From assembly GCA_964016885.1 (NCBI GenBank), contig OZ024746.1, forward strand, positions 30,442,001 to 30,506,000: 64,000 nt of DNA, in the 5' to 3' direction. How positions within the stretch are numbered: the stretch's first letter is position 1; the number at the start of each line of letters is the position of its first letter. Below are positions 660-64,000 of this stretch, one piece after another. The translations under genes were made by a program, and so were the position numbers. The notes under the pieces are model-generated. The model did no database searches. It saw nothing but the letters and a program-made list of their open reading frames with translations, and was not told the origin of the DNA. This DNA is from Eledone cirrhosa (lineage: Eukaryota).

Positions 660-1466
<807 letters not shown>

Positions 1467-1469
<3 letters not shown>

Positions 1470-4400
1470 AATTGAAACAAAATGAAAACGAAATTTCATT
1501 TCTCACTCTTAGTATGGCACTTACTTAAATGTAAGTATGCATGTATACGTACATACATATATGTATACAGACGTACAGTAGCATGCACATATATATACAT
1601 ATATACATACATATGCATACAGGTACACATACATATATGCACGTATCAGTTTAGCGGCGCTTATTATAACGTCGCTTTGTTCGTTTGTAAACAAACTGAA
1701 CAGCCTGAATTTATGCCATACGGTGTTAAGGCAACCACGTCACCTTTTTGTTCAACACTGACACAGGAACGATGTACTAGTTTCAAGCTTGTTAGCTATC
1801 ATCAGCACCGTTTACCCATCTGCCAGATAGTTGAACGTTCGAAAGTATATACTTCCCTTATGAAAATTAAGGCTGAGCAGCCTAATTTGCATATTGAGTG
1901 AGTTAAATCGGTCAGGCATACCGAAAACGATAAATTGAAACAAAATGAAAACGAAATTTCATTTCTCACTCTTAGTATGGCACTTACTTAAATGTAAGTA
2001 TGCATGTATACGTACATACATATATGTATACAGACGTACAGTAGCATGCACATATATATACATATATACATACATATGCATACAGGTACACATACATATA
2101 TGCACGTATCAGTTTAGCGGCGCTTATTATAACGTCGCTTTGTTCGTTTGTAAACAAACTGAACAGCCTGAATTTATGCCATACGGTGTTAAGGCAACCA
2201 CGTCACCTTTTTGTTCAACACTGACACAGGAACGATGTACTAGTTTCAAGCTTGTTAGCTATCATCAGCACCGTTTACCCATCTGCCAGATAGTTGAACG
2301 TTCGAAAGTATATACTTCCCTTATGAAAATTAAGGCTGAGCAGCCTAATTTGCATATTGAGTGAGTTAAATCGGTCAGGCATACCGAAAACGATAAATTG
2401 AAACAAAATGAAAACGAAATTTCATTTCTCACTCTTAGTATGGCACTTACTTAAATGTAAGTATGCATGTATACGTACATACATATATGTATACAGACGT
2501 ACAGTAGCATGCACATATATATACATATATACATACATATGCATACAGGTACACATACATATATGCACGTATCAGTTTAGCGGCGCTTATTATAACGTCG
2601 CTTTGTTCGTTTGTAAACAAACTGAACAGCCTGAATTTATGCCATACGGTGTTAAGGCAACCACGTCACCTTTTTGTTCAACACTGACACAGAAACGATG
2701 TACTAGTTTCAAGCTTGTTAGCTATCATCAGCACCGTTTACCCATCTGCCAGATAGTTGAACGTTCGAAAGTATATACTTCCCTTATGAAAATTAAGGCT
2801 GAGCAGCCTAATTTGCATATTGAGTGAGTTAAATCGGTCAGGCATACCGAAAACGATAAATTGAAACAAAATGAAAACGAAATTTCATTTCTCACTCTTA
2901 GTATGGCACTTACTTAAATGTAAGTATGCATGTATACGTACATACATATATGTATACAGACGTACAGTAGCATGCACATATATATACATATATACATACA
3001 TATGCATACAGGTACACATACATATATGCACGTATCAGTTTAGCGGCGCTTATTATAACGTCGCTTTGTTCGTTTGTAAACAAACTGAACAGCCTGAATT
3101 TATGCCATACGGTGTTAAGGCAACCACGTCACCTTTTTGTTCAACACTGACACAGGAACGATGTACTAGTTTCAAGCTTGTTAGCTATCATCAGCACCGT
3201 TTACCCATCTGCCAGATAGTTGAACGTTCGAAAGTATATACTTCCCTTATGAAAATTAAGGCTGAGCAGCCTAATTTGCATATTGAGTGAGTTAAATCGG
3301 TCAGGCATACCGAAAACGATAAATTGAAACAAAATGAAAACGAAATTTCATTTCTCACTCTTAGTATGGCACTTACTTAAATGTAAGTATGCATGTATAC
3401 GTACATACATATATGTATACAGACGTACAGTAGCATGCACATATATATACATATATACATACATATGCATACAGGTACACATACATATATGCACGTATCA
3501 GTTTAGCGGCGCTTATTATAACGTCGCTTTGTTCGTTTGTAAACAAACTGAACAGCCTGAATTTATGCCATACGGTGTTAAGGCAACCACGTCACCTTTT
3601 TGTTCAACACTGACACAGGAACGATGTACTAGTTTCAAGCTTGTTAGCTATCATCAGCACCGTTTACCCATCTGCCAGATAGTTGAACGTTCGAAAGTAT
3701 ATACTTCCCTTATGAAAATTAAGGCTGAGCAGCCTAATTTGCATATTGAGTGAGTTAAATCGGTCAGGCATACCGAAAACGATAAATTGAAACAAAATGA
3801 AAACGAAATTTCATTTCTCACTCTTAGTATGGCACTTACTTAAATGTAAGTATGCATGTATACGTACATACATATATGTATACAGACGTACAGTAGCATG
3901 CACATATATATACATATATACATACATATGCATACAGGTACACATACATATATGCACGTATCAGTTTAGCGGCGCTTATTATAACGTCGCTTTGTTCGTT
4001 TGTAAACAAACTGAACAGCCTGAATTTATGCCATACGGTGTTAAGGCAACCACGTCACCTTTTTGTTCAACACTGACACAGAAACGATGTACTAGTTTCA
4101 AGCTTGTTAGCTATCATCAGCACCGTTTACCCATCTGCCAGATAGTTGAACGTTCGAAAGTATATACTTCCCTTATGAAAATTAAGGCTGAGCAGCCTAA
4201 TTTGCATATTGAGTGAGTTAAATCGGTCAGGCATACCGAAAACGATAAATTGAAACAAAATGAAAACGAAATTTCATTTCTCACTCTTAGTATGGCACTT
4301 ACTTAAATGTAAGTATGCATGTATACGTACATACATATATGTATACAGACGTACAGTAGCATGCACATATATATACATATATACATACATATGCATACAG

Positions 4401-5247
4401 GTACACATACATATATGCACGTATCAGTTTAGCGGCGCTTATTATAACGTCGCTTTGTTCGTTTGTAAACAAACTGAACAGCCTGAATTTATGCCATACG
4501 GTGTTAAGGCAACCACGTCACCTTTTTGTTCAACACTGACACAGGAACGATGTACTAGTTTCAAGCTTGTTAGCTATCATCAGCACCGTTTACCCATCTG
4601 CCAGATAGTTGAACGTTCGAAAGTATATACTTCCCTTATGAAAATTAAGGCTGAGCAGCCTAATTTGCATATTGAGTGAGTTAAATCGGTCAGGCATACC
4701 GAAAACGATAAATTGAAACAAAATGAAAACGAAATTTCATTTCTCACTCTTAGTATGGCACTTACTTAAATGTAAGTATGCATGTATACGTACATACATA
4801 TATGTATACAGACGTACAGTAGCATGCACATATATATACATATATACATACATATGCATACAGGTACACATACATATATGCACGTATCAGTTTAGCGGCG
4901 CTTATTATAACGTCGCTTTGTTCGTTTGTAAACAAACTGAACAGCCTGAATTTATGCCATACGGTGTTAAGGCAACCACGTCACCTTTTTGTTCAACACT
5001 GACACAGGAACGATGTACTAGTTTCAAGCTTGTTAGCTATCATCAGCACCGTTTACCCATCTGCCAGATAGTTGAACGTTCGAAAGTATATACTTCCCTT
5101 ATGAAAATTAAGGCTGAGCAGCCTAATTTGCATATTGAGTGAGTTAAATCGGTCAGGCATACCGAAAACGATAAATTGAAACAAAATGAAAACGAAATTT
5201 CATTTCTCACTCTTAGTATGGCACTTACTTAAATGTAAGTATGCATG
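1467..5247 (-). mobile_element. 463-bp HHR-containing tandem array, left arm (~8.2 units; ribozyme sense on minus strand)
   Basis: Exact 463-bp period (ORF starts 1482, 1945, 2408 ... 4723). HHR motif on minus strand at 1768-1812 and every +463 to 5009-5053. The sense 3' end (...TTTCAATTTAT) joins (TA)n at 1467. Confidence 0.9.
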
Positions 5248-5248
5248 C

Positions 5249-7785
5249 ACAAAAAAGGTGACGTGGTTGCCTTAACACCGTATGGCATAAATTCAGGCTG
5301 TTCAGTTTGTTTACAAACGAACAAAGCGACGTTATAATAAGCGCCGCTAAACTGATACGTGCATATATGTATGTGTACCTGTATGCATATGTATGTATAT
5401 ATGTATATATATGTGCATGCTACTGTACGTCTGTATACATATATGTATGTACGTATACATGCATACTTACATTTAAGTAAGTGCCATACTAAGAGTGAGA
5501 AATGAAATTTCGTTTTCATTTTGTTTCAATTTATCGTTTTCGGTATGCCTGACCGATTTAACTCACTCAATATGCAAATTAGGCTGCTCAGCCTTAATTT
5601 TCATAAGGGAAGTATATACTTTCGAACGTTCAACTATCTGGCAGATAGGTAAACGGTGCTGATGATAGCTAACAAGCTTGAAACTAGTACATCGTTCCTG
5701 TGTCAGTGTTGAACAAAAAGGTGACGTGGTTGCCTTAACACCGTATGGCATAAATTCAGGCTGTTCAGTTTGTTTACAAACGAACAAAGCGACGTTATAA
5801 TAAGCGCCGCTAAACTGATACGTGCATATATGTATGTGTACCTGTATGCATATGTATGTATATATGTATATATATGTGCATGCTACTGTACGTCTGTATA
5901 CATATATGTATGTACGTATACATGCATACTTACATTTAAGTAAGTGCCATACTAAGAGTGAGAAATGAAATTTCGTTTTCATTTTGTTTCAATTTATCGT
6001 TTTCGGTATGCCTGACCGATTTAACTCACTCAATATGCAAATTAGGCTGCTCAGCCTTAATTTTCATAAGGGAAGTATATACTTTCGAACGTTCAACTAT
6101 CTGGCAGATGGGTAAACGGTGCTGATGATAGCTAACAAGCTTGAAACTAGTACATCGTTCCTGTGTCAGTGTTGAACAAAAAGGTGACGTGGTTGCCTTA
6201 ACACCGTATGGCATAAATTCAGGCTGTTCAGTTTGTTTACAAACGAACAAAGCGACGTTATAATAAGCGCCGCTAAACTGATACGTGCATATATGTATGT
6301 GTACCTGTATGCATATGTATGTATATATGTATATATATGTGCATGCTACTGTACGTCTGTATACATATATGTATGTACGTATACATGCATACTTACATTT
6401 AAGTAAGTGCCATACTAAGAGTGAGAAATGAAATTTCGTTTTCATTTTGTTTCAATTTATCGTTTTCGGTATGCCTGACCGATTTAACTCACTCAATATG
6501 CAAATTAGGCTGCTCAGCCTTAATTTTCATAAGGGAAGTATATACTTTCGAACGTTCAACTATCTGGCAGATGGGTAAACGGTGCTGATGATAGCTAACA
6601 AGCTTGAAACTAGTACATCGTTCCTGTGTCAGTGTTGAACAAAAAGGTGACGTGGTTGCCTTAACACCGTATGGCATAAATTCAGGCTGTTCAGTTTGTT
6701 TACAAACGAACAAAGCGACGTTATAATAAGCGCCGCTAAACTGATACGTGCATATATGTATGTGTACCTGTATGCATATGTATGTATATATGTATATATA
6801 TGTGCATGCTACTGTACGTCTGTATACATATATGTATGTACGTATACATGCATACTTACATTTAAGTAAGTGCCATACTAAGAGTGAGAAATGAAATTTC
6901 GTTTTCATTTTGTTTCAATTTATCGTTTTCGGTATGCCTGACCGATTTAACTCACTCAATATGCAAATTAGGCTGCTCAGCCTTAATTTTCATAAGGGAA
7001 GTATATACTTTCGAACGTTCAACTATCTGGCAGATGGGTAAACGGTGCTGATGATAGCTAACAAGCTTGAAACTAGTACATCGTTCCTGTGTCAGTGTTG
7101 AACAAAAAGGTGACGTGGTTGCCTTAACACCGTATGGCATAAATTCAGGCTGTTCAGTTTGTTTACAAACGAACAAAGCGACGTTATAATAAGCGCCGCT
7201 AAACTGATACGTGCATATATGTATGTGTACCTGTATGCATATGTATGTATATATGTATATATATGTGCATGCTACTGTACGTCTGTATACATATATGTAT
7301 GTACGTATACATGCATACTTACATTTAAGTAAGTGCCATACTAAGAGTGAGAAATGAAATTTCGTTTTCATTTTGTTTCAATTTATCGTTTTCGGTATGC
7401 CTGACCGATTTAACTCACTCAATATGCAAATTAGGCTGCTCAGCCTTAATTTTCATAAGGGAAGTATATACTTTCGAACGTTCAACTATCTGGCAGATGG
7501 GTAAACGGTGCTGATGATAGCTAACAAGCTTGAAACTAGTACATCGTTCCTGTGTCAGTGTTGAACAAAAAGGTGACGTGGTTGCCTTAACACCGTATGG
7601 CATAAATTCAGGCTGTTCAGTTTGTTTACAAACGAACAAAGCGACGTTATAATAAGCGCCGCTAAACTGATACGTGCATATATGTATGTGTACCTGTATG
7701 CATATGTATGTATATATGTATATATATGTGCATGCTACTGTACGTCTGTATACATATATGTATGTACGTATACATGCATACTTAC

Positions 7786-7787
<2 letters not shown>
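5249..7787 (+). mobile_element. 463-bp HHR-containing tandem array, inverted right arm (~5.5 units)
   Basis: Reverse complement of the left-arm unit. HHR motifs at 5652, 6115, 6578, 7041 and 7504. Ends at ...CATGCATACTTACAT, running into (TA)n. Confidence 0.9.
5652..5696 (+). ncRNA. Minimal type I hammerhead ribozyme motif (representative of 20 copies)
   Basis: AACGGTG-CTGATGA-T-AGCT(AACA)AGCT-T-GAAA-CTAG-TA-CATCGTT. Stem I AACGGTG/CATCGTT (7 bp, one G-U), intact core boxes, palindromic stem III ACTAGT, GUA triplet with predicted cut after 5689. Stem II closes with a non-canonical U-U. Confidence 0.8.
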
Positions 7788-7860
<73 letters not shown>

Positions 7861-7926
7861 TATACATATACATATATATACATATACATATATAAATATA
7901 TATATATATATATTTATATATGTATA

Positions 7927-7960
<34 letters not shown>

Positions 7961-8153
7961 CATATATATATAGATATATATACATACATATATATATATA
8001 CATAAATATATATATATATATACATAAATATATATATATATATACATACATATATATATATATATACATAAATATATATATATATATATACATAAATATA
8101 TATATATATATACATAAATATATATATATATATACATAAATATATATATATAC

Positions 8154-8208
<55 letters not shown>

Positions 8209-8221
8209 TATATAGATATAT

Positions 8222-8300
<79 letters not shown>

Positions 8301-8313
8301 TATATAGATATAT

Positions 8314-8370
<57 letters not shown>

Positions 8371-8443
8371 TAGATATATATACATACATATATATATATA
8401 TATATACATACATATATACATACATATGTATATATATATATAC

Positions 8444-8486
<43 letters not shown>

Positions 8487-8661
8487 TATACATATATATA
8501 TATACATATATATACATATACATACATATATATACATATATATACATATACATACATATACATATACATATATATATACATATACATATACATATATATA
8601 CATATATATACATATATATACATATACATATACATATATATACATATATATACATATATAT

Positions 8662-8727
<66 letters not shown>
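7788..8727. repeat. Compound (TA)n microsatellite
   Basis: Seen directly. Confidence 0.95.
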
Positions 8728-16657: not shown

Positions 16658-16719
<62 letters not shown>

Positions 16720-16768
16720 AGTATGTATGTATACGTACATACATGTATGTATACAGAAGTACAGTAGC

Positions 16769-16830
<62 letters not shown>

Positions 16831-16833
<3 letters not shown>

Positions 16834-17339
16834 AAAACAAATAACGAAACGAAATTAAATTTCGTTTCGTTTGTAACTCACTTTTGTATGACTGACGCTT
16901 AAACAATTAAGTTAAAAATGTACATCCACATATGTATACTGAAATACTAGTATGCATATGAATACTCAAACGTGCACATATGTAGATGTACCGAGTTTTT
17001 CACTGGACACTTTACTGTGAGTGTTCAGCTATTCTGTATGTAAACACACAGTGGCTTTCTGGAGAATAGAGGAAAGGTGTTTCCTCGAAAACCAGTATGA
17101 CTCTAAAAACCGGTTTGTCTGTGTGTTTACATACAGAATAGCTGAACACTCACAGTAAAGTGTCCAGTGAAAAACTCGGTACATCTACATATGTACACGT
17201 GTGTGTATTCATATGCATACTAGTATTTCAGTATACATATGTGGATGTACATTTTTAACTTAATTGTTTAAGCGTCAGTCATACAAAAGTGAGTTACAAA
17301 CGAAACGAAATTTAATTTCGTTTCGTTATTTGTTTTTAT
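16831..17339. repeat. ~220-bp inverted repeat (16831-17051 / 17119-17339) with ~67-bp spacer
   Basis: Arms are reverse complements with very few mismatches. The terminus resembles the 463-bp unit end. The left end abuts (TA)n. Confidence 0.85.
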
Positions 17340-17559
17340 CGTCTCCGCTGAACCGGTACGTACTCACGCTCTATGCAAATTAGTCTGCCCACTACTTGAA
17401 ACTAGTACATCGTTCCTGTGTCAGTGTTGAACAAAAAGGTGACGTGGTTGCCTTAACACCGTACGGCATAAATCAGGCTGTCCGTTTGTTTACAAACGAA
17501 CAAAGCGAACATTATAATAAATGTTCGCTAAACTGATACGTACATATATATATGTTTGC

Positions 17560-17631
<72 letters not shown>

Positions 17632-17730
17632 GCTACTGTACTTCTGTATACATATATGTATGTACGTATACATACATACTTGCATTTAAGTAAGTGCCGT
17701 ACTAAGAGTGAGAAATGAAATTTCGTTTCA
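17340..17730 (+). mobile_element. Diverged, internally deleted copy of the 463-bp unit
   Basis: TATGCAAATTAG...CTTGAAACTAGTACATCGTTCCTGTGTCAGTG...GAGAAATGAAATTTCGTTTC. The 5' half of the HHR (CTGATGA) is deleted and the internal TA tract is expanded. Confidence 0.85.
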
Positions 17731-17744
17731 TTCTATTCTATCTA

Positions 17745-18106: not shown

Positions 18107-21100
18107 GCCTTTCTCAGTTTACGATGACTTACCAGCTATATATAAGGGATAATAGAGACCTCTTTCTCAATCCACCATGCCTAAACAGTTATACATAAGT
18201 AGTATTCGATACCTTTCTCAGTTCACTATGGCATATCAGTTATACATACGGGACTTTTAATACCTTCCCGAGCGTTCCAAGGCGCACCAGTTATATATAA
18301 GGGATATTTGATACCTATCTCAATCCACCAAGGCTCACCAGTTATATATAAGGGATATTTGATACCTATCTCAATCCACCAAGGCTCACCAGTTATATAT
18401 AAGGGATATTTGATACCTATCTCAATCCACCAAGGCTCACCAATTATATATAAGGGATATTTGATACCTATCTCAATCCACCAAGGCTCACCAATTATAT
18501 ATAAGGGATATTTGATACCTATCTCAATCCACCAAGGCGCACCAGTTATATATAAGGGATATTTGATACCTATCTGAATCCACCAAGGCTCACCAGTTAT
18601 ATATAAGGGATATTTGATACCTATCTGAATCCACCAAGGCTCACCAGTTATATATAAAGGACATTTGATACCTATCTCAATCCACCAAGGCTCACCAGTT
18701 ATATATAAAGGACATTTGATACCTATCTCAATCCACCAAGGCTCACCAGTTATATATAAAGGACATTTGATACCTATCTCAATCAACCAAGGCTCACCAG
18801 TTATATATAAAGGACATTTGATACCTATCTCAATCCACCAAGGCTCACCAGTTATATATAAAGGACATTTGATACCTATCTCAATCCACCAAGGCTCACC
18901 AGTTATATATAAAGGACATTTGATACCTATCTCAATCCACCAAGGCTCACCAGTTATATATAAAGGACATTTGATACCTATCTCAATCCACCAAGGCTCA
19001 CCAGTTATATATAAAGGACATTTGATACCTATCTCAATCCACCAAGGCTCATCAGTTATATATAAAGGACATTTGATACCTATCTCAATCCACCAAGGCT
19101 CACCAGTTATATATAAAGGACATTTGATACCTATCTCAATCCACCAAGGCTCACCAATTATATATAAGGGATATTTGATACCTATCTCAATCCACCAAGG
19201 CTCACCAGTTATATATAAGGGATATTTGATACCTATCTCAATCCACCAAGGCTCACCAATTATATATAAGGGATATTTGATACCTATCTCAATCCACCAA
19301 GGCTCACCAGTTATATATAAGGGATATTTGATACCTATCTCAATCCACCAAGGCTCGCCAGTTATATATAAGGGATATTTGATACCTATCTCAATCCACC
19401 AAGGCTCACCAGTTATATATAAAGGACATTTGATACCTATCTCAATCCACCAAGGCTCACCAGTTATATATAAGGGATATTTGATACCTATCTCAATCCA
19501 CCAAGGCTCACCAGTTATATATAAGGGACATTTGATACCTATCTCAATCCACCAAGGCTCACCGGTTATATATAAGGGATATTTGATACCTATCTCAATC
19601 CACCAAGGCTCACCAGTTATATATAAAGGACATTTGATACCTATCTCAATCCACCAAGGCTCACCAGTTATATATAAAGGACATTTGATACCTATCTCAA
19701 TGCACCAAGGCTCACCGGTTATATATAAGGGATATTTGATACCTATCTCAATCCACCAAGGCTCACCAGTTATATATAAAGGACATTTGATACCTATCTC
19801 AATCCACCAAGGCTCACCAGTTATATATAAAGGACATTTGATACCTATCTCAATCCACCAAGGCTCACCAGTTATATATAAAGGACATTTGATACCTATC
19901 TCAATCCACCAAGGCTCACCAGTTATATATAAAGGATATTTGATACCTATCTCAATCCACCAAGGCTCACCGGTTATATATAAGGGATATTTGATACCTA
20001 TCTCAATCTACCAAGGCTCACCAGTTATATATAAAGGACATTTGATACCTATCTCAATCCACCAAGGCTCACCAGTTATATATAAGGGATATTTGATACC
20101 TTCCCCAGTTCACCAAGGCAGGCTCACCAGTTATATATAAGGGATGTTTGATACCTTCCCCAGTTCACCAAGGCAGGCTCACCAGTTATATATAAGGGAT
20201 GTTTGATACCTTCCCCAGTTCACCAAGGCAGGCTCACCAGTTATATATAAGGGATATTTGATACCTTCCCCAGTTCACCAAGGCAGGCTCACCAGTTATA
20301 TATAAGGGATGTTTGATACCTTCCCCAGTTCACCAAGGCAGGCTCACCAGTTATATATAAGGGATATTTGATACCTTCCCCAGTTCACCAAGGCAGGCTC
20401 ACCAGTTATATATAAGGGATGTTTGATACCTTCCCCAGTTCACCAAGGCAGGCTCACCAGTTATATATAAGGGATAGTTGATACCTTCCCCAGTTCACCA
20501 AGGCTCTCCAGTTATATATAAGGGATATTCGATACCTTTCTTAGTCTGTATAGACTTACCAGCTATATCTAACTGGATTCCTTTCTCAGTCTGTATAGAC
20601 TTACCAGCTATATCTAACTGGATACCTTTCTCGGTCTGTATTGAATTACCAGCTATATCTAACTGGATTCCTTTCTCAGTCTGTATTGACTTACCAGCTA
20701 TATCTAACTGGATACCTTTCTTAGTCTGTATATACTTACCAGCTATATCCAACTGGATACCTTTCTCAGACTGTATAGACTTACCAGCTATATCTAACTG
20801 GATACCTTTCTCAGTCTGTATTGAATTACCAGCTATATCTAACTGGATTCCTTTCTCAGTCTGTATTGACTTACCAGCTATATCTAACTGGATACCTTTC
20901 TTAGTCTGTATAGACTTACCAGCTATATCTAACTGGATACCTTTCTCAGTCTGTATATACTTACCAGCTATATCCAACTGGATACCTTTCTCAGACTGTA
21001 TAGACTTACCAGCTATATCTAACTGGATACCTTTCTCAGTCTGTATTGAATTACCAGCTATACCTAACTGGATACCTTTCTTAGTCTGTATAGACTTACC

Positions 21101-21830
21101 AGCTATATCTAACTGGATACCTTTCTTAGTTTGTATAGACTTACCAGCTATATCCAACTGGATACCTTTCTCAGTCTGTGTAGACTTACCAGCTATATCT
21201 AACTGGATACCTTTCTCAGTCTGTGTAGACTTACCCGCTATATCTAACTGGATACCTTTCTTAGTCTGTATAGACTTACCAGCTATATCCAACTGGATAC
21301 CTTTCTCAGACTGTATTGAATTACCAGCTATATCTAACTGGATACATTTCTTAGTCTGTATAAACTTACCACTTATAACTAACTGGATACCTTTCTCAGA
21401 CTGTATAGACTTACCAGCTATATCTAACTGGATACCTTTCTTAGTATGTATAGACTTACCAGCTATATCTAACTGGATTCCTTTCTCAGACTGTATAGAC
21501 TTACCAGCTATATCTAACTGGATACCTTTCTCAGTCTGTATAGACTTACCAGCTATATCTAACTGAATACCTTTCTCGGTCTGTATAGACTTACCAGCTA
21601 TATCTAACTGGATCACTTTCTCAGTCTGTATAGACTTACCACTTATAACTAACTGGATTCCTTTCTCAGTCTGTATTGAATTACCAGCTATATCTAACTG
21701 GATACCTTTCTTAGTCTGTATAGACTTACCAGCTATATCTAACTGGATACCTTTCTCAGTCTCTATTGACTTACCAGCCATATCTAACTGGTATTCGATA
21801 CCTTTCCCAGTCCGCCATGGCATATCAGCT
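18107..21830. repeat. Compound minisatellite: 51-bp (~18277-20100, ~36 copies), 55-bp (20101-20485, 7 copies), 45-bp (20531-21790, ~28 copies)
   Basis: Periods read directly. All units share GATACCT..CTCA/CCCA..ACCAG(T/C)TATAT; degenerate units flank both sides. Confidence 0.95.
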
Positions 21831-31964: not shown

Positions 31965-32757
31965 TTCCAGCATAGTTACGTCCCTTTACGGTCTGAGTTC
32001 AAATCCCGCCGAGGTTAACTTTGCCTTTCATCCTTACGGGGTCGATAAAATAAAGTACCAGTAATGTACTGGGTAATTGATGGCCTTGTGCCAAAAGTAG
32101 AAACAATTATTATTATTATCATATGGAAATGGCGGTGGATTGGCAGTATCGGTAGAGGGTCGGACGCCATGCTTTCCAGCATAGTTACGTCCCTTTACGG
32201 ACTGAGTTCAAATCCCGCCGAGGTTAACTTTGCCTTTCATCCTTACGGGGTCGATAAAATAAAGTACCAGTAATGTACTGGGTAATTGATGGCCTTGTGC
32301 CAAAAGTAGAAACAATTATTATTATTATCATATGGAAATGGCGGTGGATTGGCAGTATCGGTAGAGGGTCGGACGCCATGCTTTCCAGCATAGTTACGTC
32401 CCTTTACGGACTGAGTTCAAATCCCGCCGAGGTTAACTTTGCCTTTCATCCTTACGGGGTCGATAAAATAAAGTACCAGTAATGTACTGGGTAATTGATG
32501 GCCTTGTGCCAAAAGTAGAAACAATTATTATTATTATCATATGGAAATGGCGGTGGATTGGCAGTATCGGTAGAGGGTCGGACGCCATGCTTTCCAGCAT
32601 AGTTACGTCCCTTTACGGACTGAGTTCAAATCCCGCCGAGGTTGACTTTGCCTTTCATACTTACGGGGTCGATAAAATAAAGTACCAGTAATGTACTGGA
32701 TAATTGCTGGCCTTGTGCCTAAAGTAGAAACAATTATTATTATTATCATATGGAAAT
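31965..32757 (+). mobile_element. Tandem array of SINE family 2 (209-bp period, ~3.8 units)
   Basis: ORF starts 32064, 32273 and 32482 give the period. Each unit has an A box, a GAGTTCAAATCC B box, the central domain and an (ATT)n tail. Confidence 0.85.
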
Positions 32758-43390: not shown

Positions 43391-43614
43391 AAGAGTTGAT
43401 TGAGTGCATCTATGCTCACAACCTCATGGACACTTAAAACATTTACCAAGTCATACTCTATTGCGAACGACGGATGTAGGATATATGCAGATACACACAC
43501 CACACACATCCAGCGTTAAGCAAATATATATCTCCATTGTACTGCATTGCATCCTGTGTTGTTTATCCATTATATATATATATATATATAATGGATAAAC
43601 AACACAGGATGTAC

Positions 43615-46600
43615 AACGTTCAACTATCTGGCAGATGGGTAAACGGTGCTGATGATAGCTAACAAGCTTGAAACTAGTAGATCGTTCCTGTGTCAGTGTT
43701 GAACAAAAAGGTGACGTGGTTGCCTTAACACCGTATGGCATAAATTCAGGCTGTTCAGTTTGTTTACAAACGAACAAAGCGACGTTATAATAAGCGCCGC
43801 TAAACTGATACGTGCATATATGTATGTGTACCTGTATGCATATGTATGTATATATGTATATATATGTGCATGCTACTGTACGTCTGTATACATATATGTA
43901 TGTACGTATACATGCATACTTACATTTAAGTAAGTGCCATACTAAGAGTGAGAAATGAAATTTCGTTTTCATTTTGTTTCAATTTATCGTTTTCGGTATG
44001 CCTGACCGATTTAACTCACTCAATATGCAAATTAGGCTGCTCAGCCTTAATTTTCATAAGGGAAGTATATACTTTCGAACGTTCAACTATCTGGCAGATG
44101 GGTAAACGGTGCTGATGATAGCTAACAAGCTTGAAACTAGTACATCGTTCCTGTGTCAGTGTTGAACAAAAAGGTGACGTGGTTGCCTTAACACCGTATG
44201 GCATAAATTCAGGCTGTTCAGTTTGTTTACAAACGAACAAAGCGACGTTATAATAAGCGCCGCTAAACTGATACGTGCATATATGTATGTGTACCTGTAT
44301 GCATATGTATGTATATATGTATATATATGTGCATGCTACTGTACGTCTGTATACATATATGTATGTACGTATACATGCATACTTACATTTAAGTAAGTGC
44401 CATACTAAGAGTGAGAAATGAAATTTCGTTTTCATTTTGTTTCAATTTATCGTTTTCGGTATGCCTGACCGATTTAACTCACTCAATATGCAAATTAGGC
44501 TGCTCAGCCTTAATTTTCATAAGGGAAGTATATACTTTCGAACGTTCAACTATCTGGCAGATGGGTAAACGGTGCTGATGATAGCTAACAAGCTTGAAAC
44601 TAGTACATCGTTCCTGTGTCAGTGTTGAACAAAAAGGTGACGTGGTTGCCTTAACACCGTATGGCATAAATTCAGGCTGTTCAGTTTGTTTACAAACGAA
44701 CAAAGCGACGTTATAATAAGCGCCGCTAAACTGATACGTGCATATATGTATGTGTACCTGTATGCATATGTATGTATATATGTATATATATGTGCATGCT
44801 ACTGTACGTCTGTATACATATATGTATGTACGTATACATGCATACTTACATTTAAGTAAGTGCCATACTAAGAGTGAGAAATGAAATTTCGTTTTCATTT
44901 TGTTTCAATTTATCGTTTTCGGTATGCCTGACCGATTTAACTCACTCAATATGCAAATTAGGCTGCTCAGCCTTAATTTTCATAAGGGAAGTATATACTT
45001 TCGAACGTTCAACTATCTGGCAGATGGGTAAACGGTGCTGATGATAGCTAACAAGCTTGAAACTAGTACATCGTTCCTGTGTCAGTGTTGAACAAAAAGG
45101 TGACGTGGTTGCCTTAACACCGTATGGCATAAATTCAGGCTGTTCAGTTTGTTTACAAACGAACAAAGCGACGTTATAATAAGCGCCGCTAAACTGATAC
45201 GTGCATATATGTATGTGTACCTGTATGCATATGTATGTATATATGTATATATATGTGCATGCTACTGTACGTCTGTATACATATATGTATGTACGTATAC
45301 ATGCATACTTACATTTAAGTAAGTGCCATACTAAGAGTGAGAAATGAAATTTCGTTTTCATTTTGTTTCAATTTATCGTTTTCGGTATGCCTGACCGATT
45401 TAACTCACTCAATATGCAAATTAGGCTGCTCAGCCTTAATTTTCATAAGGGAAGTATATACTTTCGAACGTTCAACTATCTGGCAGATGGGTAAACGGTG
45501 CTGATGATAGCTAACAAGCTTGAAACTAGTACATCGTTCCTGTGTCAGTGTTGAACAAAAAGGTGACGTGGTTGCCTTAACACCGTATGGCATAAATTCA
45601 GGCTGTTCAGTTTGTTTACAAACGAACAAAGCGACGTTATAATAAGCGCCGCTAAACTGATACGTGCATATATGTATGTGTACCTGTATGCATATGTATG
45701 TATATATGTATATATATGTGCATGCTACTGTACGTCTGTATACATATATGTATGTACGTATACATGCATACTTACATTTAAGTAAGTGCCATACTAAGAG
45801 TGAGAAATGAAATTTCGTTTTCATTTTGTTTCAATTTATCGTTTTCGGTATGCCTGACCGATTTAACTCACTCAATATGCAAATTAGGCTGCTCAGCCTT
45901 AATTTTCATAAGGGAAGTATATACTTTCGAACGTTCAACTATCTGGCAGATGGGTAAACGGTGCTGATGATAGCTAACAAGCTTGAAACTAGTACATCGT
46001 TCCTGTGTCAGTGTTGAACAAAAAGGTGACGTGGTTGCCTTAACACCGTATGGCATAAATTCAGGCTGTTCAGTTTGTTTACAAACGAACAAAGCGACGT
46101 TATAATAAGCGCCGCTAAACTGATACGTGCATATATGTATGTGTACCTGTATGCATATGTATGTATATATGTATATATATGTGCATGCTACTGTACGTCT
46201 GCATACATATATGTATGTACGTATACATGCATACTTACATTTAAGTAAGTGCCATACTAAGAGTGAGAAATGAAATTTCGTTTTCATTTTGTTTCAATTT
46301 ATCGTTTTCGGTATGCCTGACCGATTTAACTCACTCAATATGCAAATTAGGCTGCTCAGCCTTAATTTTCATAAGGGAAGTATATACTTTCGAACGTTCA
46401 ACTATCTGGCAGATGGGTAAACGGTGCTGATGATAGCTAACAAGCTTGAAACTAGTACATCGTTCCTGTGTCAGTGTTGAACAAAAAGGTGACGTGGTTG
46501 CCTTAACACCGTATGGCATAAATTCAGGCTGTTCAGTTTGTTTACAAACGAACAAAGCGACGTTATAATAAGCGCCGCTAAACTGATACGTGCATATATG

Positions 46601-46759
46601 TATGTGTACCTGTATGCATATGTATGTATATATGTATATATATGTGCATGCTACTGTACGTCTGTATACATATATGTATGTACGTATACATGCATACTTA
46701 CATTTAAGTAAGTGCCATACTAAGAGTGAGAAATGAAATTTCGTTTTCATTTTGTTTCA

Positions 46760-46765
<6 letters not shown>
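43615..46765 (+). mobile_element. Second 463-bp HHR-containing tandem array (~6.8 units)
   Basis: Same unit as 1467-7787. HHRs at 43642 and every +463 to 46420. 5'-truncated; 3' end ...TTTCAATTTAT joins (TA)n exactly as at 1467. Confidence 0.9.
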
Positions 46766-46799
<34 letters not shown>

Positions 46800-46800
<1 letters not shown>

Positions 46801-52162: not shown

Positions 52163-55100
52163 CTACAGAACAATGTAGAGAGAAGGCCCATTTACACGGG
52201 CCATTCTCGCTTCTTTCACCCACCTTTCATAAAACTGTCTGGGACCAAGCACTTCTCTCTCCATCCTGATTCTTCTTCCGAAGTGGTATCGGAAGAAGTA
52301 AACCAGGTGATGGCCGGAAAGAAAGTCACCCGACCTCAGACCTTTCAGGCGCATCCACCACACAACCTCTTTCATCATGGCTATTACGCACAGAAAGACC
52401 GCCTCTGCTTCATTTCTGAAGGGAGGAGGCGGCTTGATGTTCACCACAGACTCGGCGGTTAATCGAATCGGCGCCACACGCGGCAGCAGTCGTTCGACGT
52501 AGCCCCACAGATCGGCAACGCCCGGGCAGTGTACCAGTGCATGCGCAACGGTTTCCTCGTCGCGCACGCATCTGGGACAGATCTTTTTCGCGGGATCCCT
52601 GCCCGGGCGCCCGTGTCTGTAGAGCTTTTCTCGAACGGGCAGAGCCCCCGGTAACACTGCCAGGCTAGGGACCTCTGGAAGTTGTCCATGGGTCCCGGGC
52701 CGAAAGTTCTACCGAACAGGCTGGCCAGTTCGTCCTCCTTCATGTCTAGCGACTCTCCAAGGGTGTCGTCGCCCCTGCTAGCCACCAACCCTCTATAGAA
52801 TGTCGAGGTGGATTCTCCACTGACAGTCGGGTCCGCTTGCCAGATAGCCGTGAGCGCCTGGGCACACTCGGTGTGCCAGTTGCCCAGTTTTCTCGGTCTT
52901 TGCTTCACCCAGGATTGCAGTTCGGTGAGCGAGACGAGCTGTGGGAAGGCTCGCCTCACAAACGGGGCCCACACCGGCTGACCGTTGAGGAATACCTGTA
53001 GATGCCGTAGCCTCAATGCGTGCCTACGCATCAACAGCCACTGCATACCCAGCCCTCCTTTCGAAGGGTGCTGGCAGCAGATGGATCTCCTCACCATGGG
53101 AGGCCGCTTCTTCCAGAGGAACTGGAAGAGCATGCGTTCCATGATGGTGAGCTTTTCCTTGGGGCAAGGCACGACGGTCAGGCGGTAGTAGATGACGGAC
53201 GCTATGTAAGCGTTCGTCACCTCCGCCCGACCTTTCAGTGATAGTTTGCACTTGGCCCACTTCTGGGTCAGCGCAAACACCCTGCTCGTCACCTCGCCCC
53301 AATTCTTCTCCACCTGGAGGTCCGGTCCGAACCAGACCCCGAGCAGCTTCACCGGGCCCTCCGTCCACCGCCCGACGACACCGTCTAACGGCATCGGTTT
53401 GCCCCTCCACGTTCCGAGTTGCAAACCGACTGACTTGTCCTGGTTCAGCTTAGCCCCCGTCAGCCTTTCGTATTCCTCCAGTAGGGTGGCGATCGCCCCG
53501 ATTTCCGAGGCGTCCGCCACCATTACTGTTACGTCGTCGGCATAGGCCGAGACCGCTTTGTGCAATCCCGGTTCCGGGGGTATGCCCCGCAGCAACTCCA
53601 ACTTCCGCAGCAGTGGCTCGAGAGTCAATACGTACAGAAGGGAGGAGAGGGGGCACCCCTGTCTGATGGATCGGGTGATTTGAAACGGCTCCGAGAGGTA
53701 GCCGTTTACTTTAATCCTAGAGTAGATGTTGCCACTGTGCATGGCAGAAATCCAGCCCCTGAAAACGGGTCCGAAGCCCGCCGCCGCTAGCACCGCATCC
53801 AGGTAACCATGGTCGACCCTATCGAACGCCTTAGATTGATCCAAGTTGATCAGGGCCCCACCAAAGCCGGGTTCGTAGCCAACCCTCTCTATGATGTATC
53901 GCATGAGGTGGAGGTTGTCGTGAATGGACCTGGACGGGATAGCGCATGTCTGCGCGTCTCCCACCAAACCACCCACCACAAGCGCCAACCTCTTCGCCAA
54001 CACCTTGGCCAAAATCTGTAACTCTGCATTCAGCAGAGTTATGGGCCTAAAGTTACTTAAGTCGTCCCCCTTGCTCTCGTCCTTCCTCACTAGCGTGACC
54101 ACGCCCTTGATCACAGAACAGGGAATTCTCCCGTTCTGTTGCCAGTTGCAATAGACAGCCTCGAGGAGTTCGGAGAACAAGACCGGCATAGCTAAATAAA
54201 GTTCGTATGGTAGACCATCGAGACCCGGGGATTTGCGTCTGCTGCATTGGCTGAGCGCTTCCCCGATTTCAGTGGCTGTGATTGGCCTTTCGCAGCACTC
54301 CGCTTCGCCGCTCGAAAGACGCGGTAGACCGTCGAGGTATGGACCGAAGTCCACATCCCCGTCCGGCCCCCCGCCACCTCCGAACAGTCGAGCAAAGTGC
54401 CTTTGAAAGGTCTCGCACATTCGCTCAGGTTCAAGGATCACCCGTCCATCCTGGTCTCGCAAAGACCGAATGGTGGATTTAATCCCACTCTTGGCTTCTG
54501 TCACGCGGGCCCAGCTAACAGCTTTGGTCCCCTCGTTTCCTAAAGCACGTATTTTACTTCGGACAACGCAGCCTTCGTGCTTCGCGTCAAAGAACTGGCT
54601 CAATGCCGTTCTCGTCGCTAACACTCTGGCTACGTCTCCGCTCCTAATCGCCTCTTCTAGTTTATCTGTTAACTCCCTTTCCCTCCTATTTCTATTCGCC
54701 GCTAGTTCCTTACTGTAACCTATCGAACTTACTCTAATCTCTCTCTTTAGAGATATCCACCACCTACTGTTGACGATCGCTCCCGTCAACCGCATCTTAA
54801 CTAAGCTACTAATCTGGTTTCTGTAATCTTTCTTTGTCGGTAAGGACAAGTTCATCTTCCAGTAACCGGGACCCTGTCTATGCGTTCTATCAAGGTTGAC
54901 CACGCAGGTCACTAATTTGTGATCTGAATAGCCAACCATGATCAGTTCTGGACAACTAAATACGTCCCTATCCTTACTCCTAACCAAAAACCTATCTAGG
55001 TACGATCTAGATTGTCCACTGCGGTTTGCCCAGGTCCAGGTTGGCGCAGTTGGACAATCTAGTCGAAATCTATCGACCAGGTCGAATCGATCGAGTAACC

Positions 55101-55604
55101 CCTTGAGGCTGCTACACCCCCCTCTATCGGGACATGCCCCTGCATAGTCCCAACGCGCATCTAGGATTCCATTCCAGTCCCCCACTAAAAGCAGGGAACG
55201 CGACGTTCCTAGAAAAGTCTCCAGACGCTGGAAGAAGTCGGCTCTTTCCGCCCCGAAGGGAGCATAAAGACCGACCAGTCTGAAAGCCCCGCCTTCACCG
55301 CCTCCGACGTCCAGCACCAGTAATCGACCCCCCGGGTCCGAGTGAACAATCTGTACGTCGAGAGTCAGACGTTTATCCAGCAGTACGGCAACTCCCCCCC
55401 CCCCCTGCCTCCGGGTTGACAGAGAGATGCGTGCATCTCAAAGTCATCGAAGGCGGGCGCCAGCTGTCTCACGCTGCTGATCCGACTCTCGCAAACAACC
55501 ATCACATCTATACTTTGTGACCTGAGGTCACTTAGAAGCTTTGCTTGCTTCCAAGCTGAGCCCAGGCCACGCGCGTTCAAACAGCCAACTCTCAATTGAT
55601 CTAT
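52163..55604 (-). CDS. LINE ORF2: AP endonuclease, reverse transcriptase, C-terminal zinc finger (2 homopolymer frameshifts)
   Basis: LNARGL, CESR, VGDWN, SYLDRFL and YSDH (APE); KSPGLDG, FRPITLLN, LDQSKAFDRV, QGCPLS and AYADD (RT); CPRC...ETVAHALVHC. Joined from ORFs 55365-55595, 52459-55317 and 52163-52657. Confidence 0.85.
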
Positions 55605-58714: not shown

Positions 58715-59697
58715 CATTTTTTTATTAGCCACAAGGGCACAAAAGAAGGGAACAAATACAAATGGGGAGTTTACATACAGGTATATGAAAATAAAACTAT
58801 TAATAAAATAACAAATAACAATTGAAATCCCCAATAGGGAGGAGGCGTTACACAGGGGTTGTACACACCCCGAAAAAATGTACAACCCTCATCTCCAGGA
58901 GCACCAAGAGTGAGTACTCCCTTCCTCTCTTCCTCTTTTTCCTCAATCTACAGGCTTATATAGAGAGAGGCCCAACCACTCGGGCCATCTTTGTCACATT
59001 CACCCACCTTTTATAAAATTTGCTGGGGTACAGCACCTCTCTCTCCATCCTGATTCTTCTTCCTAAATGATATTTGAGAAAACGAATCAGTTGCTCGCCG
59101 GAGAGAAAGGTGTCTGACCTCAGCCCTTTTAACCTCGTCCACCATATAACCTCTTTCAGCATAGCCATAACACATAGGAAAACCGCCTCTCCCTCGTTTT
59201 TGAAGGAGGGTGGCGGTTTGATCATGACAATGGACTCGGTGGTCAACTGGATTGGTCCCACCCGCGACAATAGTCGTTCTACATAGCCCCACAGGTCGGT
59301 AACGCCCGGGCAGTGTACAAATGCGTGCGCGACGGTTTCCTCGTCGCGCACGCATCTCGGACAGATCTTTTTCGAAGGGTCCCTGCCTGGGCGTCCGTGT
59401 CTGTAGAGCTTGTCTCGAACTGGTAGAGATCCTCGGTAGCACTGCCAGGCCAGCGACTTTTGGAAGTTGTCCATTGGTCCCGGGAGGAAGGTCCTACTGA
59501 ACAGACTGGCCAGTTCGTCCTCCTCTACGCCTAGAGTTTCTCCGAGCGCGTCGTCGCACCTGCTGCTGACCAACCCTCTATAGAATGTCGAAGTGGAGTC
59601 TCCACTGATCGCCGGGTCCGTTTGCTAGAGGACTGTGAGCGCCTGAGCACATTCGATGTGCCAGTCGCCCATTTTCCTCGGTCTTTGCTTGACCCCA
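58715..59697 (-). mobile_element. 5'-truncated L1/Tx1-type LINE (copy 2), flanked by (GATA)n
   Basis: ORF 58956-59573 is homologous to the ORF2 C-terminus of copy 1, with the same 3' end. (GATA)n at ~58673-58714 and 59697-59729. Confidence 0.9.
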
Positions 59698-59732
59698 GAT
59701 AGATAAATAGATAGATAGATAGATAGATATAT

Positions 59733-62700
59733 AACTTTCTATTTATTTGCCACCAGGGCATCAGAGATTGGGTCAAATACAAGGGGGGGGGGGGGGGGGG
59801 TTACATACATTTCAAAGGACGTGTAAAAACATATAACAAATCAAATTCAACAATCGAAGTTCTCAATAGGGAGGGGGCGTTGACATGGGTCGCACACACC
59901 CCCGAAAAAAAATGTGCAACCCTCCTCCTCAGGAGCACAAAGAGCGAGTTCTCCCTTCCTCTCCTCCTTCTTCACCTCTCTCACCTACAGGCTGATATAG
60001 AGAGAGGGCCCATTAACTCGGGCCATTCTCACCACTTTCACCCACCTTTCATAAAATTTGATGGGGTAGAGCACCTCCCTCTCCATTCTGATCCTTCTTC
60101 TAAAATGGTACTTGGAAAAAAAGACCAGTTGTTGGCCGGAGAAAATAGTGTCTGACCTCAGCCCTTTCAACCTCGTCCACCAATCAACCTCTTTCGCCAT
60201 AGCTATCACACAGAGGAAAACCGCCTCTCCTTCGTTTTTGAAGGGGGGAGGCGGTTTGATTGTGACAATGTACTCGGGGGTCAACCGGATTGGTCCCACC
60301 CGCGACAGTAGTCGTTCCACATAGCCCCACAGGTCAGCAACGCCCAGGCAATGTACGAATGCGTGCGCGACGGTTTCCTCGTCATGCACGCATCTCGGAC
60401 AGATCTTCTTCGAGGGGTCTCTACCCGGGCGCCCGTGTCTGTAGAGCTTGTTCCGAACGGGTAGAGCTCCTCGGTAGCACTGCCAAGCCAGGGACTTTTG
60501 GAAGTTGGCCATCGGTCTCGGGACAAACGCCCTACCGCACATACTTGCTAGCTCGTCTTCCTCCATGCCCAGAGCCTCTTTGAGAGCGTCGTCACACTGG
60601 CTGCGCACCAACCCTCTATAGAATGTTGAGGTTGAGTCTCCACAGATTGCCGGATCCGCTTGCCAGAGGGCCGTGAGGGCCTGGGCACATTCAATGTGCC
60701 AGTCGCCCACTTTTCTCGGTCTTTGCTTGACCCACGATTGCAGCTCGGTGAGTGAGGCGAGTCTCGGAAAGGCTCGCCTCACAAAAGAGGCCAACACCGG
60801 CTGACCGGCGAGGAATACCTGGAGGTGCCGTAGCCTTAATGCGTGTCTATGCATCGTCAGCCACGGCATCCCCCAGCCCTCCGTTCGAAGGGTGTTGACA
60901 GCAGATGGATCTTCTCACCAAAGGGGCCGCTTCTTCCAAAGGAATCGGAAGAGCGCGCGCTCCATTTTGGCGAACGTTTTCGCTGGGCAAGGCACGACGG
61001 TCAAGCGGTAGTAGATGACGGACCTTTCAAGGATAGTTTGCACTCGGCTCACTTCTGGACGAGTGCAAACACCCTGCCCGTTACCTCGTCCCAGTTTTTC
61101 TCCACCTGGAGGTTCGGTCCGGACCAGACCCCGAGCAGCTTCACCGGTCCCTCCGTCCAGCGTCCGACGACGCCGTTGGCGGGCATCGGTTTGCCTCTCC
61201 ACGTTCCGAGTTGCAAACCGACGGACTTGTCCCTGTTCAGCTTGGCTCCTGTAAACCTTTCGTATTCCTCCAGTAAGGTGCAGATCTGCCCGATTTCCGA
61301 GGCGCACGACACCATTGCTGTCACGTCATCGGCGTAGGCCGACACCGATTTCCGCAATCCCAGTTCCAAGGGGATTCCCTGCAACAGCTCCAACTTCCGC
61401 AGTAGTGGCTCGAGAGCCAGCACATACAGAAGGGAGGAGAGAGGGCATCCCTGTCGGATGGATCGCGCGATTTGGAACGGCTCCGAGAGGTACCCGTTCC
61501 CCTTGACCCTCGAGCAGGTGTTACTGCTATGCATTGCAGTAATTCAGCCCCTGAAAACGGGCCGAAGCCTGCCGCCGCGAGCACCGCATCCAGGTACCGA
61601 TGGTCGACCCTATCGAACGCCTTAGTTTGATCCAAGTTGATCAGGGTCCCACCAAAGCCGGGTTCATTCCCCACCCTCTCTACGGTGTATCGCATGAGAT
61701 GGAAGTTATCGTGTATGGACCTGGACGGGATTGCGCATGTCTGCACTTCTCCCACCAGGTTCCCGACGACAAGCACCAACCTCTTCGCTAACACCTTGGC
61801 CAAAATCTTTAACTCTGTGTTTAACAGATTTATGGGCCTGAAGTTATCTATGTCATCCCCTTGTTCTCGTCCTTCCTCACCAGCGTAACTACGCCCTTAG
61901 TCACAGAACTGGGAATTCTCCCGTTTTGTTGCCAGTTGCAGTAGACCGCCTCGAGGAGATCGGAGAACAAGTCCGGCATCGCTACATAAAGTTCGTATGG
62001 TAGACCATCGAGAACGCATTGACTCAGCGCTTCCCCTATTTCAGCGGCTGAAATCGGCCTTTCGCAGGACTTCGCCAACCCGTCCGAGAGCCGCGGCAGA
62101 CCGTCGAGGTATGGACCGAAATCCATGGCCTCACCCGGCCCGCCGCTCCTCTCGAACAGTGGTGCAAAGCGCCGTTGAAAGGCCGCGTCCATCCGCTCAG
62201 GTTCAACGATCACGCGTCCATCCTGGTCCTTCAAAGACCGAATCATAGACTTGTTTCCAATTTTTGCCTCTGTCACTCGGGCCCTGCTAACAGCTTTGGC
62301 TCCCTCGTTACCCAGAGCACGTATTTTACTCCTGACAACTCAGCCCTTGTGCTTCGGATCAAAGAACTGATCTAGGGCCGTTCTTGACACCAGCACACCG
62401 ACCGCGTTACCACTCCTAATCGCCTCTGCTACTCTATCTATCAATTCCCTTTCAGTTCTATTCCTATCTGATGCTAATTCCTGACTAAAACCTATCGATT
62501 CTATTCTAATTTCTCTCTTGAGAGAGCCCACCACCTGCTGTTGACAATTTCCCCCATCAACCGCTGCTTAACTAGAGTGCTAATCCGCTTACTGTAAGCT
62601 TTGTTTGTCGGTAAGGACAAGTTTAGCTTCCAGTAACCGGGTCCTTGTCTATGGGTTCTATCAAGGTTGACCACTCCGGTCACCAACTTGTGATCCGAAT

Positions 62701-64000
62701 AGTCAACCATGAACATTCGTGGACAGCTTAATATGTCCCAATCCTTATTTCTAACTAGGAACCTATCTAGGTACGACCTATGATGTTCCGTTGCAATTAA
62801 TCTACGTTCACAGTGGCACAGTCGGAAAATCTAGTCGATATCTATCGGCCGATTAACCGTTTGAGGCTGTTACACCCTCTCTATCGGGACATGCCCCTAC
62901 ATAGTCCCAACGTGCATCCAGGATACCATTCCAGTCCCCCACTAAAAGCAAGGAGCGAGACGTTCTCAGAAAAGTCTCTAGGCGTTGGAAGAAGTCCGGT
63001 CGCGGTGTCCCAGATGGGGCATACGCTGCCACCAGCCTGAAGGCTCCACCTTCAGTACTGCCGACGTCTAGAACCACCAGTCGACCTTCCGGGTCCAGGT
63101 GTACCTTCCGTGTTGCGAGGCCCAGGTGTTTTCGCAGCAGAACGACCTTCCTCCGCCACCCCCCATCCCCCGGCTGACAGAGAGATGCATAGATCTCAAA
63201 GTCGTCGAAGATGGGGGCCAGTTGGTGATCGCTGCTGATCCTGGACTCGCAAATAGCTATCACATCCATTCTGTGCGACCTGAGGTCATTTAAGAGTTTG
63301 CCCTGCTTCCAGGCCATCCCCAGGCCGCGCACATTTAAACATCCAACTCTTATAACAGCCATGTTAGTGGTGAAGAGTTTAGAGTGGAGAAAAAGGAAAA
63401 GACACCTACCTGTCCTTCTCCTGGGGACCAGGCTGCACAATTTCCATAGGGGTGTCGGCGGGGTTGTTTGGTGGGGTGGTGGTTTGGGATGTGGTGGGAC
63501 ATCAGTATGTGGTGGGGTGGGGGTGTTTTGTGGGGGAGGGGTGTCTGGGGTGGTGGTGGGGAAACATTTCAAGAGGACGCGGTTGCTAGGTCTAGTACAG
63601 GGGGTCCCCACGTCCTCGGGAAAGTTCTGTTTGAGCATTGTGTAGGTGTCCCGTGGGACCCTAATCATTTTTAAATGCGGTTTAGTCGACGCATTGGTGA
63701 GCATTTCCCTTCGGTTTCCACCGAAGGGTCTTTGTCTATTGTTTGCACAAGTGTTTTATAGTTTGTGTTGATGTATGTATACTGTTTTTGTCGTGTTGTG
63801 TTTGTTTTTGTTTGTTGTTCTTGTGTGTGTTTGCGTTTTGTAGTATGTGTTATATTTTCGGGAGGGGTGGGTTTTTTTGTTTGTGATGTTTGTTCTGTTT
63901 GTGCTGGTGGTTGTGTGTTTGTTGCATTTTTGTTGATGTGGTGCCTTCTTCTTTTCTTCCTTTTTACCGGTTGAAAGGGTTCTCCCTCGTCGTCACTGGG
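59733..64000 (-). mobile_element. Degenerate L1/Tx1-type LINE (copy 3), running off the window
   Basis: Fragmented ORF2 (APE, QGCPLS, AYADD, zinc finger) with many frameshifts, plus the ORF1 tail; 3' end at (GATA)n. Confidence 0.9.

Follow-up and report, generated by a model that had tools for sequence, protein, structure and literature searches.

Two fixed, paired 3' ends at (TA)n runs in a tandem-repeat family of Eledone cirrhosa, a likely retrozyme, probably copied by a Penelope-like protein

Non-LTR retrozymes of metazoans are tandem arrays of a non-coding unit of a few hundred bases with low GC content, which carries one type I hammerhead with a palindromic minimal helix III and occurs in thousands of dispersed copies beside Penelope-like elements (PMC7229834; 10.64898/2026.07.22.740005). 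Hammerheads of this kind have been described as acting as dimers (PMC4209133), and both circular RNA and cleavage have been demonstrated for published metazoan retrozymes. Their mobilisation by Penelope elements via circles was proposed (PMC7229834, PMC4209133) and has been supported by co-occurrence and phylogeny (10.64898/2026.07.22.740005); the accessible passages of these papers do not describe the ends of the insertions.

EN+ (Neptune-type) Penelope-like elements are found at (TA)n targets with a 5'-truncated inverted copy placed head to head (PMC8557442, PMC3846280). They possess a tail at one end only, two internal start sites of reverse transcription that bound the tail, and a hammerhead in the repeat. 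In the anole Penelope element, initiation is internal and takes place at two sites bounding the tail, both strands are nicked and extended, the targets are AT-rich and a dimer is predicted (PMC11167929). The inverted copy and the one-sided tail have been ascribed to endonuclease resolution or self-priming (PMC8557442, PMC3846280). The origin of these two features, as well as the mover of animal retrozymes, is stated as open in the cited literature.

A head-to-head inversion also results from the twin priming of L1, where both target strands prime cDNA and the products are joined by microhomology. In L1 the first primer sits on poly(A) and the second site is variable.

Arrays of the window and their likeness to known systems

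The window, the whole stretch of DNA that was analysed, comprises 64,000 nt of the 3.0-Gb genome of E. cirrhosa. It includes three arrays of one 463-bp unit, the units being 99-100% alike. The arrays, their targets and the predicted elements of the last unit are as follows.

1467..5247, minus strand: first arm (arm 1) of an insertion with two arms; 8.2 copies of the 463-bp unit, running from unit 387 at the 5' end to site A (unit 463) at the 3' end
5252..7787, plus strand: second arm (arm 2) of this insertion; 5.5 copies, running from unit 181 at the 5' end to site B (unit 401) at the 3' end
43615..46765, plus strand: single-armed insertion with 6.8 copies, running from unit 91 at the 5' end to site A at the 3' end
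679..1466, no strand: (TA)n-rich target tract beyond site A of arm 1
7788..8726, no strand: (TA)n-rich target tract beyond site B of arm 2
46766..46797, no strand: (TA)n run fused to site A of the single-armed insertion
43550..43611, no strand: 62-bp perfect palindrome, its centre a (TA)n run, at the 5' junction of the single-armed insertion
46415..46467, plus strand: type I hammerhead predicted in the last unit, with its core at 46427-46433 and the predicted cut after 46457
46580..46690, plus strand: TA-rich block, predicted long hairpin, length varying between copies
46696..46713, plus strand: short predicted hairpin containing site B; ends after unit 398, 401 or 404 correspond to 46700, 46703 and 46706
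46704..46765, plus strand: 62-nt tail from site B to site A, predicted hairpin 46730-46752

The two arms of the first insertion stand head to head with 4 extra bases at the junction. Site B is 62 nt upstream of site A, and both are fused to (TA)n. A previous reading of the window, made before any search (the sequence-only reading), stated that both arrays share one terminus. This holds for the minus-strand array ending at 1467 and the plus-strand array ending at 46765, which have the identical last base of the unit, each joined to (TA)n, but not for the third array (5252-7787), which ends at the second fixed site, B. The terminus had been placed about 300 nt past the predicted cut, and site A indeed lies 308 nt beyond it (the cut being after unit 155); the 5' ends, said to vary, are at unit 387 and unit 91 in the two site-A arrays. 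The palindrome 43550..43611 is an inverted copy of the left flank of the single-armed insertion and may represent a snap-back of the second target strand. Inverted flank copies were also flagged at four of 38 other single arms, in one case TA-centred.

Like the metazoan retrozymes, the family has a tandem non-coding unit of a few hundred bases with low GC content, one predicted type I hammerhead with palindromic minimal helix III per unit, and thousands of dispersed copies beside Penelope-like elements; a tandem non-coding unit (about 150-1000 nt) dispersed over many loci is one of the features by which a retrozyme is recognised. The features of EN+ Penelope-like elements are present as well, namely two fixed 3' ends bounding a tail, a tail on one side only, an inverted 5'-truncated copy, variable 5' ends and a microsatellite target. 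In contrast to Penelope-like elements, the unit has no ORF, the tail is 62 nt long as against the 30-40 bp quoted, and both arms can be multi-copy. The retrozyme papers, in their accessible parts, derive Penelope mobilisation from co-occurrence and sequence kinship, whereas here the insertion ends carry the Penelope footprint in A/B pairs; circular RNA and cleavage were demonstrated there, while for the present family both are predictions. It is likely that the family is a non-LTR retrozyme with ends A and B that is copied in trans by a Penelope-like RT/GIY-YIG protein.

Two other assignments were rejected. The arrays are not an autonomous Penelope-like element, as they contain no coding ORF for RT and GIY-YIG; nor was any coding ORF found linked to the unit in the fetched loci. 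A SINE- or LINE-mobilised element does not agree with ends that are internal to a unit which reads on in every inner copy.

Several other repeats were recorded in the window. An older insertion with two arms, which belongs to a related subfamily (83% alike), occupies 16712-17735. Its left end is of B type and its right end of A type, and another related family is nested between the two; the right part of the insertion has 2,264 search candidates in the genome. Adjoining minisatellites of 51 bp (46.7 copies) and 45 bp (28 copies) with a common core are located at 18131-21791, and a 209-bp unit is repeated 3.8 times, with 98% likeness, at 31965-32757. Several APE/RT LINE copies, including one minus-strand open frame of 992 residues, were found at 52163-55437 and 58956-63755.

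Insertion ends across the genome and their pairing

The exact pattern of site A followed by (AT)n occurs 889 times in the genome and its reversed-pattern control 0 times. For site B with (AT)n the count is 529 with 32 in the control, which leaves about 500, and the exact pattern of the hammerhead core gives 10,427 copies. In an independent public run, 11 contigs exit the unit at the site A base into (AT)n. The site A end is therefore not a product of chance, and many hundreds of (TA)n runs in the genome carry an insertion of the unit family.

The ends and flanks were tabulated in two sets of loci not selected by their ends, from which arms below 88% identity and weak matches shorter than 60 nt were excluded. 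Set 1 comprised all 51 loci behind 100 listed hammerhead matches (of the 10,427), and its 85 arm ends were 41 A, 37 B, one other, four unplaced in the TA-rich block and two cut off. The 26 loci of best identity that made up set 2 yielded 43 arm ends (21 A, 21 B and one cut off). Sites A and B account for 120 of the 121 resolved ends, and a TA run adjoins 112 of these 120, the background being 9%. The random scatter along the unit without enrichment at (TA)n that would have spoken against the sequence-only reading was thus not found; the ends are concentrated at two fixed sites in (TA)n. Site B is a cluster with ends after unit 398, 401 and 404, and site A is mostly unit 463, with some ends at 458-460. 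The 5' ends are scattered along the unit, and those at the ribozyme cut (6/147 versus 4.2 expected) show no significant excess of run-off. The A arm usually continues past site B; four of 53 A arms stop there versus 2.1 expected, so that stalling at B is not significant. The idea of internal initiation at a fixed site primed at (TA)n is supported by these counts, with the correction that there are two start sites, paired one per arm.

The last two bases are AT or TA at every sub-site of A and B, one arm stops 1 nt before the cut site (L157), and APE/RT LINE copies are present in the window. These facts agree with priming at a ribozyme-made RNA end, or by a LINE, or with ends that are microhomology joins to (TA)n. 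Such an origin is, however, scarcely credible, as the cut site followed by (TA)n was found three times and an internal TATA with 6-nt, that is longer, microhomology twice in the whole genome, against 889 and 529 for A and B, and the ends lack poly(A) or a LINE-like 3' end. Priming at the ribozyme end, which the sequence-only reading had regarded as the poorer fit, is rejected on the same counts.

In sets 1 and 2, every one of the 41 resolved back-to-back pairs joins an A arm to a B arm, with no A/A and no B/B pair (P = 4e-13 if the sites were chosen independently); five further pairs of set 1 have one end unplaced or cut off. A coordinate-only test on one chromosome compared 100 listed A sites with those 61 of 100 listed B sites that share their 368-Mb range. 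It found 35 A/B pairs facing outward, where 0.8 was expected by chance, and one facing inward at 23 kb, with no A/A and no B/B. A wider sample of 107 loci, 31 of them end-selected, contained 74 pairs, of which 65 were A/B, eight unplaced and one scored as A/A by the script. On reading, the end in question (L164) turned out to be of type B, with a TA run and then a related-subfamily fragment behind it, so that this pair is A/B as well.

The insertions lie in (TA)n and have their 3' ends at two fixed sites with 62 nt between them; the 5' ends are scattered, and every resolved pair has both A and B. The rule of one A arm and one B arm per pair had not emerged from the work in vitro, where the Penelope protein showed no strand difference in start site (PMC11167929). 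The parts, i.e., retrozymes, the tail and internal initiation, are already known. A survey at title and abstract level, with the subscription literature on Penelope structure outside its scope, found no report of Penelope-type ends on a retrozyme or of obligatory A/B pairing.

The two arms overlap by 1-6 nt at 29 of 48 junctions (BLAST overlap), and both arms exceed one unit in 24 of 66 pairs. For Penelope inverted copies another reading has been given (PMC3846280, PMC8557442), by which one arm is target-primed and the inverted arm arises by fold-back self-priming of the first strand, its end being set by endonuclease resolution. The exactly symmetric junctions (4/48) and the inverted flank copies at some single-arm 5' ends (4/38, and the window insertion) are in line with it, but two like cDNAs annealing at a palindrome should give symmetric joins as well. 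At 34 of 48 junctions a distance of more than 50 nt separates the two 5' ends, as for random ends (37.5 expected), the longer arm can be either one (36 versus 30 pairs), and the variant 163T of arm 1 in the window has no mirror in arm 2. This makes fold-back self-priming improbable.

The template and the predicted hammerhead

The divergence between the arms of one insertion is 0.51%, compared with 1.83% with shuffled partners (48 pairs), and the lowest of 2000 partner shuffles gave 1.37%. In seven of the 48 pairs, all units of the two arms (up to 13) share a variant that is rare among the 90 sampled loci. Each insertion has one source haplotype.

At least two cut sites are traversed in 82 of 187 arms, the 5' ends show no run-off at the cut, and recurrent variants are spaced regularly by 2, 3 or 6 units in seven of the nine arms having any. 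The multi-copy arms would be explained by a template circle read for several turns, and we give an even chance to the template having been such a hammerhead-cut, re-ligated circle. Penelope-type initiation and a circular template were offered as alternatives by the sequence-only reading. The Penelope-type internal start is upheld by the ends, yet the two do not exclude each other, and for the circle the balance stays as just stated. A single shared trimer circle cannot give the pattern of the window, since arm 1 carries the period-3 variant 163T and five consecutive units of arm 2 are without it. Compared in register, the arms have no polymorphic variant in common and 118 discordant cells (mostly singletons, with some alignment noise); two variants are common to both arms out of register. 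In L042, a second haplotype is confined to one arm.

With the same Penelope enzyme and start sites, the template could instead have been a linear read-through transcript, or two RNAs of a then-active subfamily, the long arms and the 2-, 3- and 6-unit periodicity being partly due to later DNA-level duplication, which has been proposed as a source of array growth (10.64898/2026.07.22.740005). The recurrent variants found in one arm only in the informative pairs W1, L042 and L120 point in this direction, as does the dispensability of the ribozyme in vitro (PMC11167929). An excess of A>G in multiply copied rare variants (18 of 56, versus seven of 143 singletons, p = 1e-6) counts for the circle, but its strand bias, A>G to T>C at 18:9 with some variants common to related loci, is not significant (p = 0.12), which also agrees with a linear template. 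Against it, rare variants are fixed across all 8 to 13 units of both arms (L103, L151), so that a step from one unit to many is needed; some arrays (L038, L051) consist of 12 to 16 identical units and have intact ends; and two independent RNAs leave the strict A/B pairing unexplained. On the whole, we consider the linear template unlikely.

L031 and L033 are older long arrays (more than 20 and more than 14 units) with 4% between-unit divergence, unlike the homogeneous young arrays, and at L040:1077-6391 one 3.8-unit insertion is present twice, with identical junctions 3.56 kb apart, as a local DNA-level duplication.

The predicted hammerhead has a 7-bp helix I, a 4-bp helix II closed by a U.U mismatch, which is atypical for a hammerhead, and a palindromic 2-nt loop III. 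The core, helix I, helix II and the palindromic minimal helix III are present in every full unit, and the unit RNA is predicted to carry a self-cutting motif. The motif is no proof of self-cleavage, since in vitro cleavage was absent in eight of nine predicted Xenopus elements (10.64898/2026.07.22.740005). The Rfam scan of the window produced no match, the motif being below the Rfam thresholds, and no compensatory changes were found among the 40 commonest variants; these two results and the U.U at the base of helix II count against the reading proposed here. A variant excess at unit 155-157, as from a ligation scar at the cut site, was not detected. For the hairpins predicted at A, at B and in the ribozyme region, folding is no stronger than in shuffled sequences (z about -1), and the z of -6.2 obtained for folding is driven only by the TA-rich block.

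Each unit also contains octamer-like and TATA-like motifs upstream of the hammerhead (46340-46347 and 46378-46386 in the window), which we take to be possibly an internal snRNA-type promoter. The octamer-like motif is kept in diverged relatives.

The candidate protein and the proposed copying route

GIY-YIG frames are abundant in the genome (10,596 candidates, of which 150 were scored), and the first 40 fetched GIY-YIG loci fall into about seven protein clusters. There are long ORFs with matches to both RT and GIY-YIG; in two of them the RT match is below the curated cut-off, and the GIY-YIG match of L082 comes from the GIY-YIG search only. The CX2-5CxxC linker, a feature of Neptune-type elements (PMC8557442), is present in three long ORFs. 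In all six two-armed insertions of RT/GIY-YIG families (L085, L089, L096, L082, L095 and, by terminal repeat only, L034), both ends lie in (TA)n, one of them short and the other long. The tails of these families are 62, 36 and about 50 nt long.

An autonomous RT plus GIY-YIG element sharing the terminus, such as the sequence-only reading had envisaged, was not found in 80 fetched loci, 79 of them distinct, out of the 150 listed among 10,596 candidates; none had the retrozyme unit as a terminal repeat, and this speaks against copying in trans by a Penelope-like protein. Retrozyme pieces beside L090, L091, L092, L096, L195, L219, L147 and L158 proved to be separate insertions in neighbouring TA runs and were rejected as terminal repeats. 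A search with the diverged window copy as query returned non-coding relatives only, and no pLTR kin of the unit was found in the fetched loci of this genome. The tail of family N1 has the same length as the retrozyme tail (62 nt); the likeness of the two tail sequences is not significant (138/2000 shuffles), nor is it for N2 and N3.

Four N1 loci (L080, L081, L216 and L223) carry a hammerhead-like motif some 1.1-1.4 kb beyond the GIY-YIG match, in which U3/A8 (or U3/G-shifted) replaces the C3-G8 pair. A similar hammerhead-like core is present in a sister family of N1 (L195, L202 and L217).

The following route is proposed for the retrozyme. The hammerhead unit would be transcribed into a putative RNA, which the Penelope protein would bind near the tail. 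The protein would introduce a nick into each strand of a (TA)n run, whereupon one cDNA would be primed at A and the other at B, each reading on through the units, and the two cDNA 3' ends would be joined by short microhomology. A second strand that does not prime on the RNA could snap back on a palindromic target, as may have happened at 43550-43611. A circle, cut by the hammerhead and re-ligated, could be read for several turns to yield multi-copy arms. We regard as very probable a twin priming in which a Neptune-type protein takes part, probably as a dimer that holds one RNA, with either microhomology joining of the cDNA 3' ends or second-strand snap-back; the enzyme, the dimer, the RNA and the circle are what we infer. 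The results obtained in vitro are at odds with this route in two respects, as no difference in start site was seen there between the strands and the ribozyme was dispensable (PMC11167929).

The proposed route resembles the twin priming of L1 in the head-to-head inversion, the probable priming of cDNA on both target strands and the microhomology join. It differs in having two fixed start sites within the unit, and in an A arm that usually continues beyond B.

A more specific picture is put forward tentatively, with somewhat less than even confidence. One Penelope dimer, its RT sites set 62 nt apart on one hammerhead-made circle, would cut both (TA)n strands and roll from both ends; the tail and the inverted copy in all animals would be the trace of such asymmetric twin priming, and the arrays would be born multi-copy.

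A young, high-copy, non-coding family provides hundreds of countable insertions, and with the short RNA, the two start sites and the (TA)n target named, the Penelope copying route proposed for retrozymes becomes testable. If true, the unit would be a minimal cis-element for a two-ended RNA-templated DNA writer.

Public runs of at least 14 other organisms contain 39-68% of the words of the unit, and the two of these runs that were aligned to it (X3 and X4) show diverged relatives.
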